This document shows positions 41,921 through 54,722 of a stretch of 58,698 nt of DNA, in pieces. The stretch is from the NCBI GenBank assembly GCA_023484515.1, contig JAMDAY010000004.1:1-58698 (forward strand). The letters are read 5' to 3'. Source of the stretch: Patescibacteria group bacterium. GTDB taxonomy: Bacteria; Patescibacteriota; Doudnabacteria; UBA920. The notes below the pieces were generated by a model. The model was not told where the DNA came from, searched no databases, and saw only the letters and a program-made list of their open reading frames with translations. The position numbers and the translations under genes are program-made. How positions within the stretch are numbered: position 1 is the stretch's first letter; each line of letters starts with the position of its first letter.

Positions 41921-42763
41921 TTATCTGCTTTTCCAGTCTTGGACCGCATTTTCATAAATTTGGGGAGTGGAAACGTCATACCATAAACCGTCAAAAGTAT
42001 AGCCGCCCAGTTTGTTCTCCTCGGCCAGGCGCGGGAGCACCTCGCTCTCCAGCTTGGTCATATCGGAAGAAATATATTTAAAAAGGGACGGTTCGGCCAC
42101 GTAAATACCCGCATTGACCAGATGGGAGTGGGTCCTGGGGTTCTTAGGCTTTTCCTCAAACTCCACAATCTTGCTGCCCACTAGCCTGGCCACGCCCCAC
42201 ATGCTTACCCTTTCCACGGAAGTCAGGGCCATGGTACAGACCAAATTCTGCTGGGAGCGGTGGAATTCCAGCAAGTCGGAAAAATCTATGTCCGCCAGCA
42301 CGTCGCCGTAAATAAGCAAAAAAGTGCCGTTTGAAAATTCCCCCTGCGCCTGGCGCACGGTCTGGGCCGTGCCGCGCCTTACCCCCGACTGGTCAAGGTA
42401 GGAAATTTTCAGCCCCCAGCGGGATCCGTTACGGAAGTAATCCCTTACTTTTTGCCCGCCCGCGCCCACCGAAATGACTACGTCCACAATGCCGTATGTT
42501 TTCAGCTTTTCCAGCGTATGCTCCAAGAGCGGTTTGGCATTTATAGTTAAAAGGCCTTTGGGCATTTCCGTGGGCGTGTAGGAAAAATTAACGCCTTTGC
42601 CGCCGGCTAAAACCAGGGCCTTTACCGGTTTTTGCGCCAAGGCCTGGGACAAAATGTTTTCCACGGCATGGGAACGGTTGCGTATGGTATGACCGTCAAT
42701 AGCTTGGTCCAGTTGCTTCAGCAGCTCGCTTTTTAAAGTGATGGTGATTCTTTGTCTCGTCAT
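41921..42763 (-). CDS. Ribbon-helix-helix domain fused to a nucleotidyltransferase-fold domain
   Basis: N-terminal RQRITITLKSELLKQLD...NRSHAVE; LVLAGG, YGDVLAD, VNAGIY. Confidence 0.85.
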   Translation of the reverse strand: MTRQRITITLKSELLKQLDQAIDGHTIRNRSHAVENILSQALAQKPVKALVLAGGKGVNFSYTPTEMPKGLLTINAKPLLEHTLEKLKTYGIVDVVISVGAGGQKVRDYFRNGSRWGLKISYLDQSGVRRGTAQTVRQAQGEFSNGTFLLIYGDVLADIDFSDLLEFHRSQQNLVCTMALTSVERVSMWGVARLVGSKIVEFEEKPKNPRTHSHLVNAGIYVAEPSLFKYISSDMTKLESEVLPRLAEENKLGGYTFDGLWYDVSTPQIYENAVQDWKSR

Positions 42764-42877
42764 AGTTTTTATCCTAATTTAATGTTATAAAGTAATAGAC
42801 GTTCAGTCATATTATATCATACAATATCATACATTTAATTATTATCTCCTGCCAACCAAAACCGGATTTCTCACCTT

Positions 42878-42961
42878 CTATTGATCTCCGCAAAATCAGT
42901 TGAACAAATTTGGTCTTACTGATAACAAAAATTATTCAAGATAATATGCGGGCCTTAATAA
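42878..42961 (-). mobile_element. 84-bp palindromic MITE, copy 2
   Basis: Reverse complement differs from 45692-45775 at about 4 positions. Confidence 0.75.
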
Positions 42962-43016
42962 GACCAACCCGCAAGCCGAACCCTCTATGGGCGCGCGGCT
43001 TGCGGGTTAATTGCTG

Positions 43017-43325
43017 TCATGCCGCAAGGGAAAGAAGAAGCGGGGCTTCGGCGGCTACCTGCTGGAAAGGCCGCCGGAAGTTTTCCACGAAGATTTGGAT
43101 TTTCTCTTCGCTTATTCCCCCTTCCCACAGGAAGATGGGCCAAGATCCGTCTATATCTTCCAGGCTGGCGCCGTGGCACATGAGCAGGAGCTCAAGGGCG
43201 TGGTCAAAGTGCGTGTGGCACAAACCGTTAAACAGCTTCCGCCCGAAGTTCTGGAGAGATTCCCCCGGTTCCTTGAAAAAGCCGAATTCCGCGGCGCGAG
43301 AACAAATGTGTTCGCCTGCCTTCAT
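43017..43325 (-). CDS. Hypothetical protein
   Basis: GGAGGG RBS 6 nt upstream of ATG; preferred over the overlapping plus-strand ORF. Confidence 0.55.
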   Translation of the reverse strand: MKAGEHICSRAAEFGFFKEPGESLQNFGRKLFNGLCHTHFDHALELLLMCHGASLEDIDGSWPIFLWEGGISEEKIQIFVENFRRPFQQVAAEAPLLLSLAA

Positions 43326-43535
43326 TGCAACCCTCCGTTTACTAACTCATTAGACGTTTTCGCGGGAATGATACAGTAAAAAGGTATGATACGGTAATAT
43401 CTTTGCTGCGGCGGCGACTTTTCAGTATAAATGGGAATCTTTAAGCCCGCCGGAACACGACCTCTTACAAAAAATAAGTTTTTCCGTTCGGTTCCCGTCA
43501 AGGCTAACAGCTTATAAAACGCGAGGAGGAATACG

Positions 43536-44339
43536 ATGCGGAAAAAAGTGTCGGCCGTGGTTTTGGCCGGCGGATACGGCTACTTCGGAGTTGGCAAAAT
43601 TCGGATGAGCAAAGTGGTCGCTAAAATTGGCGGCAAGCCTATGGTGCGCCACGTCATGGAGACCCTCCGCTCCACGGAAATTTTTGCCAGGTACCATGTT
43701 GTTGCGAACAAGAATTACGCCAGGCAAATAGAAAACGCCCTGCAAGGACTGCCCGATACGTCCTACCAAATCCAGGAGTGCAGGATAGGCAGCGCCGGGG
43801 CGGTTGAACTGGCCCTTAAAGCGGCAAGGCCGGAAGAAGAAAACGTCCTGATAACTTATGCCGATATGCCCCTGTGGGAGCCGGCAACTTACGCCGCCGT
43901 GGCCGAACGCCACCTTCGGGAAAACCCCGACCTGACGCTGGTATCAATACCCCTTAAGCCGGGAACCAGGCCGGAACGCTACGGCCGGTTCCTTTACGGG
44001 CCGGATGGGGAACTGCTGGGAACGATTGACGACCCCGCCTGCGTGCCGGAAGGAAAATACACGCTGGCCAACGAAGTCAACCCTTCCCTTTACGCGGGGA
44101 AAACGGAATGGCTCAAGCGGGCCATCTCCGAAATCCCCCTTTACGACAAAAAGGACGGTTTCCCGCCTGAAAGGCTAATGCAGAGCGTAATCTACCTGGC
44201 TTACCGCGACAAGCGCAAAGTCGTAAAAATCCGGGTAGAAGACTGCGAACAGGCCTACGGCGTCAATACCAAGGAAGAGTTGCGCGAGGTAAAAAAAATT
44301 TTCGCCCTGCGGCGTTCTCCGGCGGTTTTGGCGGCTTAA
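43536..44339 (+). CDS. Divergent GlmU N-domain-like nucleotidyltransferase
   Basis: VLAGG, KPMVRHV, YADMPL, YGR, EVNPSLY, GVNTKEEL; AGGAGG RBS. Confidence 0.8.
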   Translation: MRKKVSAVVLAGGYGYFGVGKIRMSKVVAKIGGKPMVRHVMETLRSTEIFARYHVVANKNYARQIENALQGLPDTSYQIQECRIGSAGAVELALKAARPEEENVLITYADMPLWEPATYAAVAERHLRENPDLTLVSIPLKPGTRPERYGRFLYGPDGELLGTIDDPACVPEGKYTLANEVNPSLYAGKTEWLKRAISEIPLYDKKDGFPPERLMQSVIYLAYRDKRKVVKIRVEDCEQAYGVNTKEELREVKKIFALRRSPAVLAA

Positions 44340-44471: not shown

Positions 44472-45218
44472 TTAAGCTTTTGCGATTGCTTGTTCAGCCT
44501 GCAGCAGTTCTTCCCGGGTGTTTATTCCAAGCACTTCGCAAGGGCCTATAGGCAAGGAATAAATTTTTTCGCCCTGCCCAATGGCAATTTCCACCGCATC
44601 TGTCAGGTAATACTCCCCTTGGGCATTGCGGCTTTTTATCTTATTGATATTATTCCAAAGCCATTCCGAATTAAACATATAAATACCGGGATTGACTTCT
44701 TTAATCTGTTTTTCTTCTTCCGCGGCGTCTTTATATTCGGTAATTTTTAATATTTGGCTTTGCGGCCCGCGCAAGATCCGGCCAAAATGATTTAACGAAG
44801 AAAAGTTCCCGGTAAAATTTGGGACCGTGGCCGTAAACAAGGAAAGTTTGGATTTTTTTTCATGATGCAAGCGCATCAATTTTTTCAGGCTTTCCGCCTT
44901 TATGAACGGCATATCGCCGTAAAGCACCAAGATATCCTTTCCCGTAACTTTGCTTTTGGCGCATTTGACCGCGTGGGCCGTGCCCAACTGTTCCTTTTGC
45001 GTGGCATACAGGTATCCGTCGCCCAGCACGGCCTTGACCTGGTCTGCCATGAACCCCACCACGATGACCGGTTTGGCCAATTGGTGGATTTTGTCTACCT
45101 CTTCCAACAAATGCAGAATTAACGGCTTATTGTTCAGCATTACCAAAACCTTGGGCACGCTGCCGCTGCCCATCCTTTTCCCTTTTCCTCCGGCTAAAAT
45201 GACAATTTGATTGCGCAT
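44472..45218 (-). CDS. glmU: GlmU uridyltransferase domain only (no acetyltransferase domain)
   Basis: LAGGKGKRM..PKVL, EQLGTAHAV, LYGDMP, EVNPGIY, GEYYLTD, GINTREEL; ends after about 248 aa. Confidence 0.85.
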   Translation of the reverse strand: MRNQIVILAGGKGKRMGSGSVPKVLVMLNNKPLILHLLEEVDKIHQLAKPVIVVGFMADQVKAVLGDGYLYATQKEQLGTAHAVKCAKSKVTGKDILVLYGDMPFIKAESLKKLMRLHHEKKSKLSLFTATVPNFTGNFSSLNHFGRILRGPQSQILKITEYKDAAEEEKQIKEVNPGIYMFNSEWLWNNINKIKSRNAQGEYYLTDAVEIAIGQGEKIYSLPIGPCEVLGINTREELLQAEQAIAKA

Positions 45219-45285
45219 AAGTAGTAATCGCAAATATACAAATCTAAACAAATGCTTGCTATTATAAAAATTTATTTACTTGCAA

Positions 45286-53915: not shown

Positions 53916-54722
53916 CTAGTGGTTATCGTTCCGCCGCTGCCGCAGGATCTGTCTGAGCCGTTCCAGCTGAGCGGCGTTGTTTACTCCCCGGGCTTCGTTA
54001 TGGTCTGCCACGGGTATCTCAATAATCTTAGCCCCTTGGCCACGGGCAATCTTGAGCAGCTTGGGAAGATGCCTTTCGGCTGTCAGGCCGTCTTTGCTGA
54101 CCGGCTTAATATCCCGGAAATTGTTTTCAAACCACCGCCGGTTGAACACGTATAGCGATGGATTAACCGTCTTCACTCCCGCCAGCTCCCTGCCTTCCAT
54201 CTCGTCCGGTTCAAACACGGACAATATTCCACCTTGCCCGTCCCGCGCAATTCTTCCGTAATCGGCTATCGGGTCGCCCGGCGGAGGCGTAACAGTCACC
54301 AGGCTTATGGCCGCCTTTCCATCCCTGAGATGCGCCTCGATGAGCCGTGTCATCGTTTCTGAGGTCCAGGCGCCCATATCTCCCAACGTCACCAGGAGAT
54401 GATCCTCGCCATTCAGGCACTTCAATCCTCTGGCCACCGCGTCTGCAGCGCCAAACCGGTCCGGCTGAACCGCGAACTTTACGTCTATATGGCCTGCGGA
54501 ACGAAGGGCCTGGCGAATTTGGTCGCCAAACTGGTTCTTGCTGCGGTCACCAATCACCACCACAAGAGAACCAATTACGCCGGTCTGCTTTACCGTTCTG
54601 ACAATGCGGTTAATCATCAATTCGCCGTTGCCGACATCGGCCACCACTTTTGTAACCGACCTGTCCGGACAAAAGGAACCGAATCCTGCCGCGGGAATGA
54701 TACAACCAACGTGTTGATTCAC
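53916..54722 (-). CDS. Divergent GlmU N-domain-like nucleotidyltransferase
   Basis: IPAAG, QPDRFGAADAV, LGDM, YGRIAR, VNPSLY, GVNN. Confidence 0.8.
   Translation of the reverse strand: MNQHVGCIIPAAGFGSFCPDRSVTKVVADVGNGELMINRIVRTVKQTGVIGSLVVVIGDRSKNQFGDQIRQALRSAGHIDVKFAVQPDRFGAADAVARGLKCLNGEDHLLVTLGDMGAWTSETMTRLIEAHLRDGKAAISLVTVTPPPGDPIADYGRIARDGQGGILSVFEPDEMEGRELAGVKTVNPSLYVFNRRWFENNFRDIKPVSKDGLTAERHLPKLLKIARGQGAKIIEIPVADHNEARGVNNAAQLERLRQILRQRRNDNH

Follow-up and report, generated by a model that had tools for sequence, protein, structure and literature searches.

The window, the whole 58.7-kb stretch of DNA analysed here, is contig C3 of a genome of 1.30 Mb and 46% GC, whose relatives are Patescibacteria, near Doudnabacteria. 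Its (-) strand encodes a protein in which an RHH DNA-binding domain is fused to a nucleotidyltransferase domain, and the following features were located in and around this gene:

41921-42763, (-) strand: gene of the RHH-nucleotidyltransferase fusion, an ORF of 280 aa.
42554-42607, (-) strand: degenerate G-loop AGGKGVNFSYTPTEMPK with the PK Lys kept, from alignments.
42623-42763, (-) strand: RHH DNA-binding domain, residues 1-47, from alignment, an AlphaFold model and a PDB sequence match.
42807-42833, (-) strand: putative operator A, three GTATGA-type boxes with a 10-bp period, read directly.
42811-42819, (-) strand: perfect extended -10 TGATATAAT, overlapping boxes 2 and 3, read directly.
42826-42855, (-) strand: alternative promoter TTGGCA-18-TATGAT with 10/12 matches, from a promoter consensus scan.
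42966-43008, (-) strand: hairpin with a perfect 13-bp stem just 3' of a small ORF, from a repeat search.
43017-43325, (-) strand: small ORF of 102 aa with a GGAGGG Shine-Dalgarno sequence and homologs in loci L001 and L099.
43365-43397, (+) strand: putative operator B, GAATGATA and GTATGATA 18 bp apart and pointing at the (+) strand paralog, from direct reading and a repeat search.
43536-44339, (+) strand: GlmU N-domain-like paralog with the degenerate loop AGGYGYFG, from the ORF and profile matches.

Read along the (-) strand, the order is operator B, the 102-aa ORF, the 13-bp hairpin, an 84-bp palindromic element, operator A and the fusion gene. The hairpin likely acts as a terminator and so isolates the promoter of the fusion gene. 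The palindromic element (42878-42961) lies directly upstream of the fusion -35 region, between the presumed small-ORF terminator and operator A, and may have displaced older upstream sequence.

Both halves of the fusion protein were assigned by computation. The Pfam domain PF00483 (NTP_transferase) spans residues 48-276 (E 2e-30), and residues 4-48 resemble the N-terminal RHH of the NCBIfam NikR model (E 4e-7). In the AlphaFold model (mean pLDDT 86), the RHH helices and the opening strand of the Rossmann-like domain are joined by only about four linker residues. The top Foldseek matches were tlr0611 (8x7s), a B. anthracis RmlA-like protein, VTC1/GMPPB, MurU and HddC, with TM values of ~0.7-0.76 for 8x7s, 3hl3, 7x8j and 4y7t. 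The fold search returned nucleotidyltransferases only, without the ACT-like nickel-binding tetramerisation domain of NikR, and the C-terminal part has the Rossmann-like fold of the sugar-1-phosphate nucleotidyltransferase profile (PF00483; RmlA, GMPP, MurU, GlmU-N). The family comprises more than 300 full-length homologs (~280 aa) in about 100 clusters at 50% identity, and its members carry database names such as 'NDP-sugar pyrophosphorylase' or 'mannose-1-phosphate guanylyltransferase'. Full-text literature searches found no description of the fusion and nothing relevant on RHH regulators of CPR.

An earlier note on this DNA had proposed an N-terminal RHH from the letters alone, and both the NCBIfam match and the PDB bear this out: when the first 47 residues were compared with all PDB sequences, NikR alone was returned, with E. 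coli NikR (1q5v; DNA complex 2hzv) matching at E 8e-5. The domain consists of the strand R5-I-T7-I-T9 and helices 12-21 and 30-43, with an invariant DG..RNRSHA motif, and the alignment pairs QRVTITL...NRSEAIRDIL of NikR (strand R3-V-T5-I-T7) with QRITITL...NRSHAVENIL of the fusion. The R-x-T-x-T strand is found in 207 of the 239 family proteins, and in NikR it is reportedly through residues of this strand, according to the 2hzv structure paper, that the half-site is read. The GTATGA half-site of E. coli NikR is contained in the repeat unit of the window, and the complete E. coli operator is GTATGA-N16-TCATAC (PMC7055735).

The repeat in question, atatcataca twice at 42814-42833 of the (+) strand, had been described in the earlier note as a perfect 10-bp tandem overlapping a TGnTATAAT promoter, and it does lie on the TGATATAAT -10 element. 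On the strand of the gene it reads TGTATGATAT twice, followed by a weaker third unit AATATGACTG, and the hexamers of operator A are GTATGA (42832-42827), GTATGA (42822-42817) and ATATGA (42812-42807). The -10 (TATGAT) of the alternative promoter sits within box 1. A beta-alpha-alpha domain, here modelled as two helices after a strand region, and repeated boxes that overlap the promoter are features of RHH repressors (CopG/MetJ/Arc superfamily), and both are present. About 0.06 perfect 10-bp tandem duplications are expected in 58.7 kb by chance, so the repeat by itself is suggestive and the comparative data carry the case. Exact matches to GTATGATAY number three in the 58.7-kb window, all within operators A and B; genome-wide (1.30 Mb), a perfect direct box pair was found at the fusion promoter alone, and the triple direct layout recurs in loci L099, L003, L006 and L007.

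For the comparison, 59 fusion-encoding loci from several Patescibacteria classes and DPANN archaea were used, with proteins 33-73% identical. A pair was counted when two GTATGA hexamers with at most one mismatch in total stood at one of three observed spacings, no more than 250 nt upstream. Such a pair precedes the fusion gene in 44 of the 59 loci, whose proteins are no more than 37-73% identical, compared with 23 of 1709 control windows (250 nt, same loci); the Fisher test gives p ~1e-57, which overstates independence because the orthologous loci are mutually related. Most of the 23 control matches belong to a second conserved operator, that of an aminotransferase gene in Doudnabacteria. The upstream forms are either a direct pair, GTATGATA-aa-GTATGA, or a palindrome, GTATGATA-N-TATCATAC, with the box consensus GTATGATAaaGTATGA or GTATGATAnTATCATAC placed 27-227 nt before the ATG and often overlapping TTGACA, TATAAT-like elements or the intervening spacer. 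Direct pairs lie on the gene's strand only in 26 of 27 loci, the remaining locus having a pair on each strand, and under a strict 8-mer rule applied to 8.8-kb loci all pairs stood on the upstream side of the gene, the downstream side having none. Box spacing differs between the architectures (dyad distances of ~9-12 bp), and a single fixed tetramer geometry does not obviously fit every one of them. The earlier note had suggested such a scan upstream of orthologs and had claimed that the protein regulates itself through the tandem repeat; the boxes before the ortholog genes, together with the E. coli NikR-type strand, strongly support that claim. Judged from these sequences, the fusion protein probably shuts off its own promoter via the three GTATGA boxes.

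The archaeal members extend the comparison. Fusions with an R-x-S-x-T strand have no GTATGA pairs and carry GTATTAC or GTAATAC repeats instead, namely GTATTACGTT twice in L043, GTATTAC..GTATGAT in L045 and L046, and GTAATAC-AAA-GTATTAC in L051-L054. The RHH strand as the putative reader and the box as its site appear to covary across what are few independent lineages. The DPANN archaea that have the fusion are Nanoarchaeota, Parvarchaeota, Nanohalarchaeota and Aenigmarchaeota (L043, L045, L046, L051-L054, L059), with mostly canonical or Lys-type loops and GTATTAC-type boxes. That these archaea have the same fusion suggests exchange with CPR bacteria.

In the enzyme domain, the loop reads GGKGVNF where solved relatives have GKGTRV or GFGTRL. 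V58-N59 align with the Thr-Arg of 8x7s and 7x8j, and G-x-G-T-R-(L/M) is absent, which confirms that the NTP-transferase signature is altered and lacks the GxGTR Arg, as the earlier note had claimed. In VTC1, Gly9, Thr12, Arg13 and Lys23 contact the pyrophosphate, and Asp111, Glu195-Lys196 and Asp219 are catalytically critical (PMC9168903). K69, D154, E204-K205 and D263 of the fusion align with VTC1 K23, D111, E195-K196 and D219, and the PK Lys, the metal-binding Asp and the E-K-P sugar-phosphate motif are all present. Among 24 homologs, mostly with degenerate loops, K69, Q125, D154, E204-K205, N217, G219 and D263 are invariant.

The loop states were scored in 232 full-length family members. 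GxGxR was found in 15/232 and GxGxK in 36/232; a shifted R/K was present in 21/232, and N/S/Q followed by RP in 36/232. The loop is fully degenerate in 84/232, and in a further 40/232 it is degenerate with the PK motif absent as well. On a FastTree phylogeny, which is approximate and has many long branches, the basic/non-basic state of the loop requires at least 24 parsimony changes, and the window's protein falls in a clade of eight degenerate-loop proteins that is well supported in the same approximate tree. Some Doudnabacteria members (P0067, P0111, P0112) have a 34-aa insert within the G-loop. A fully canonical loop, GGKGTRLRP, is retained in other members, which makes an active enzyme the probable ancestor. 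For synthesis as such, the window's genome has canonical GalU and GlmU(N) elsewhere. Repeated loss of the loop while the RHH and the remaining pocket stayed fixed is not the behaviour expected under catalytic constraint and fits a sensor role. The suggestion that an enzyme fold has been repurposed as an effector domain fits what is seen, namely a missing Thr-Arg, an otherwise invariant pocket and a loop that decayed repeatedly in the family.

A second set of boxes lies farther upstream. The earlier note had reported related direct repeats, atgatacagtaa at 43368-43379 and atgatacggtaa at 43386-43397; both are present, the repeat search giving 15-nt copies (43365-43379 and 43383-43397) that are 87% alike, and a weak GTAA box follows each main box of operator B at +10. 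Its placing of these repeats in the divergent promoter region of the GlmU-like paralog is too simple, since the 102-aa ORF, with its own terminator hairpin, lies between operators B and A. The small ORF had no match in Pfam, NCBIfam or Atlas. Homologs with ~30% identity to it are found at the corresponding place in L001 (2335-2652) and L099 (1841-2191) and have in common GE..RLF..W..LL.VL..C..ADGTLWL.DEP. In both of these loci (fusion identity 73% in L001 and 70% in L099), the order is divergent paralog, small-ORF homolog and then fusion gene, as in the window, with an ortholog of the paralog (51% identity in L001) divergent from the fusion gene; L099 also has the three-box operator A. TCATAC-ttg-GTATGA or TCATAT-ata-GTATGA (TCATAY-N3-GTATGA) lies in the intergenic region between paralog and small ORF of L001 and L099, and the recurrence of box pairs in this same region makes a second target in the clade likely. 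No boxes were found upstream of the paralog in L003-L007, so control of the paralog would be specific to the small clade of the window. Two boxes 18 bp apart, the arrangement of operator B, were found nowhere else in the family. As to the further claim that neighbouring nucleotidyltransferases are regulated, putative control of the degenerate GlmU-like paralog as a second target is moderately supported by boxes that point at it and by the agreeing pairs of L001 and L099.

The window contains two GlmU-N-like paralogs with degenerate loops, the one at 43536-44339 and another at 53916-54722 on the (-) strand with AAGFGSF, as well as a canonical GlmU-N at 44472-45251. Of the two, the 43536-44339 paralog alone has boxes nearby. 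The degenerate paralogs may likewise serve as sensor or regulatory subunits without catalytic activity.

Elsewhere in the window and genome, two boxes were rejected as operators, one at 54695 that falls within the coding start of another paralog and one at C5:51655 that includes the def start codon. The pair scan also returned four divergent palindromes, ACTATCATAC-N6-GTATGATAGT, near rplJ, an EamA gene and mnmA and at C10:41660-41683. These four copies, of the form CTATCATAC-N6-GTATGATAG with the GTATGATA box in divergent orientation, lie at C14:5104-5127, C12:36786-36809, C34:2798-2821 and C10:41660-41683. Hairpin-like palindromes of this kind occur in 10 of 61 related genomes (L085-L094), compared with 0 for a reversed control, and adjoin unrelated genes, sometimes in five identical copies. 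They were taken as a separate hairpin or REP-like element and not as regulon members; they may be REP-like elements, RNA hairpins or extra binding sites. The presence of GTATGATA in palindromes beside unrelated genes means that the box is not exclusive to the fusion's regulon.

The gene neighbourhood suggests a link between the fusion and sugar metabolism. Conserved synteny comprises yvcK, a GNAT gene, a GlmU uridyltransferase domain, the fusion gene, suhB and a PHP-domain gene. In other clades the neighbours are a GAPDH-like gene, downstream of the fusion gene and in the same direction, PGK, phosphomannomutase (PMM), GlpX, ROK kinases, HAD phosphatases and an aminotransferase. With such varied neighbours, the family as a whole seems linked to the metabolism of sugars and cell-envelope precursors. 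In Doudnabacteria, a three-box operator of two direct boxes and one inverted box, GTATGATA-nn-GTATGATA-n-TATCATAC, is found 1.5-2.7 kb upstream of the fusion gene (L009-L028 and L057; e.g. L009:2200-2227 and L019:2059-2086). It is followed by an untranslated gap of 160-850 nt, which gave no relevant Rfam match, and by a class I/II aminotransferase gene closest to the alanine transaminase (AlaT) and LL-diaminopimelate aminotransferase (DapL) models; at single loci a PfkB kinase, a HAD-uridine-kinase-like protein or a phosphoribosyltransferase takes the place of the aminotransferase. The Doudnabacteria fusion leaders (L009, L010, L012, L020, L021) also contain 4-8 copies of the motif CTACAGAA and its complement TTCTGTAG in the 100-150 nt between operator and fusion start; these copies may be bound by another factor or form a structure in the leader.

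We consider it probable that the fusion is a one-component repressor that reads GTATGA boxes and carries a nucleotidyltransferase-derived sensor domain. In the mechanism that we infer, including DNA binding, repression, oligomeric state, ligand and the sign of the ligand's effect, two N-terminal RHH domains would pair into a NikR-type beta-ribbon whose R5, T7 and T9 read a GTATGA box from the major groove. Where boxes are spaced by one helical turn, as in the 10-bp direct repeats of the window or the GTATGATA-N-TATCATAC form of other clades, the bound dimers would cover the -10 and block RNA polymerase, and a second, weaker site 540 bp away would control the divergent GlmU-like paralog and/or the conserved small ORF. 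The nucleotidyltransferase domain is predicted to replace the metal-binding tetramerisation domain of NikR, probably joining RHH dimers, and to bind a small molecule that sets DNA affinity, most likely an NDP-sugar. Since the Thr-Arg that grips the beta,gamma-phosphates of the NTP is lost and the remaining pocket is kept, the domain is probably a product sensor and not an enzyme. In the clade of the window the predicted ligand is perhaps a UDP-hexosamine, going only by the yvcK-GNAT-glmU neighbourhood.

The same pocket could also belong to a protein that, like BirA, NadR and PutA, is bifunctional: an autorepressor whose enzyme domain continues to make an NDP-sugar, with substrate or product occupancy of the active site controlling DNA binding. 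All pocket residues other than Thr-Arg are invariant, members with GGKGTRLRP or GGxGxKMRP loops imply that at least some of the family are probably active, and a Lys at GGK56 or elsewhere might substitute; however, the pyrophosphate-contacting basic residue is gone with no conserved replacement (position 56 is K, R, E, N or Q), the 34-aa inserts and whole loop deletions tolerated in relatives are hardly compatible with catalysis, and the genome already has the two canonical enzymes GalU and GlmU(N). We therefore hold a bifunctional protein to be unlikely, while the enzyme domain of the fusion may have some residual activity. It is less likely still, and in our judgement improbable, that the enzyme-derived domain serves as an oligomerisation scaffold for the RHH of a ligand-independent repressor and senses nothing. 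RHH proteins do require a partner surface for cooperative binding, and the pocket may be non-functional in members that have neither loop nor PK motif, but K69, Q125, D154, E204-K205, N217 and D263 are invariant throughout the degenerate-loop clade, which is difficult to account for if no ligand is bound.

A different doubt concerns the boxes themselves, which might be promoter elements or the sites of another factor, the RHH acting otherwise, for example as an antitoxin-like partner. TATGAT is similar to a -10 hexamer, and palindromes beside unrelated genes contain the box as well. A role as -10 elements nevertheless does not explain the GTATGATA-N-TATCATAC palindromes, and the boxes track the fusion gene across phyla, change with the RHH strand in archaea and match the known NikR code; moreover, no second RHH of the NikR type was found in the genome, and the gene has no toxin-like neighbour. 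Taken together, this leaves very little room for such a reading, and a repressor with a sensor domain derived from a nucleotidyltransferase is the explanation that we prefer.

Several known systems resemble parts of this predicted repressor. NikR (E. coli 1q5v/2hzv, P. horikoshii 2bj1) shares with the fusion its R-x-T-x-T strand, NRS-x-A motif and GTATGA half-site, and, like the predicted mode of the fusion, it combines an RHH with a C-terminal ligand-binding oligomerising domain and represses by promoter occlusion. In NikR, however, the C-terminal domain is the ACT-like nickel-binding tetramerisation domain, whereas the fusion has a sugar-1-phosphate nucleotidyltransferase fold; the ligand is a metal, whereas that of the fusion is presumably a nucleotide-sugar; and the half-sites are inverted and 16 bp apart, whereas the boxes of the fusion are adjacent, as a 10-bp direct repeat or a 17-bp palindrome. 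With a different C-terminal domain and a different operator geometry, the fusion is not a NikR. Arc, MetJ, CopG and omega are RHH proteins whose dimers bind cooperatively to repeats, direct or inverted, that are spaced by about one helical turn and overlap the promoter, omega binding repeats in both orientations; they differ from the fusion in being small, in lacking a large sensor domain (MetJ binds SAM directly) and in their unrelated box sequences.

PutA, BirA and NadR each link, within a single chain, a metabolic active site with repression of the genes of their own pathway; the DNA-binding domain of PutA is an RHH, and the enzyme part of NadR is a nucleotidyltransferase. These are active enzymes of unrelated folds or families, whereas the enzyme part of the fusion seems to be a pure sensor in many lineages. 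The closest precedent for the sensor is GMPPA, a paralog of the GDP-mannose pyrophosphorylase GMPPB; catalytically inactive itself, it binds GDP-mannose, serves as a sensor of this NDP-sugar and regulates GMPPB (PMC11228364, PMC9168903). It has the same fold as the fusion (7d72; Foldseek E 1e-16 to 1e-19), likewise with the catalytic loop disabled and the product pocket kept, but it acts by allosteric regulation inside a hetero-oligomer and has a beta-helix domain and no DNA-binding domain. Owing to its degenerate loop, the fusion is not a regular member of the sugar-1-phosphate nucleotidyltransferase enzyme family. From its domains and sites we regard it as a predicted RHH repressor with an enzyme-derived sensor, neither a NikR nor a regular enzyme.

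To our knowledge, few regulators are recognisable in the ultra-small CPR bacteria and in DPANN archaea, and their metabolic control is almost uncharted. We lean, by a narrow preference, towards the view that a large, undescribed family of one-component regulators is common to Patescibacteria and DPANN archaea; in this family a NikR-type RHH would be joined to a sugar-nucleotidyltransferase that decayed repeatedly from an enzyme into a pure NDP-sugar sensor, and would exert feedback on envelope and sugar genes, with a code in which R-x-T-x-T specifies GTATGA and R-x-S-x-T specifies GTATTA. To this the window adds the three-box operator, a second site common to its nearest relatives, the context of a hexosamine cluster and the Doudnabacteria aminotransferase (AlaT/DapL-like) operator. 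Since members are named as plain enzymes in databases, pathway reconstructions probably count a regulator as an enzyme. With an operator that is predictable from sequence, regulons of uncultured lineages could be mapped by computation. The loops, graded from canonical to degenerate, would document in nature how an enzyme became a sensor, and the family would be a bacterial and archaeal parallel to GMPPA. If true, this would mean feedback control of envelope and sugar genes in organisms with very few transcription factors.
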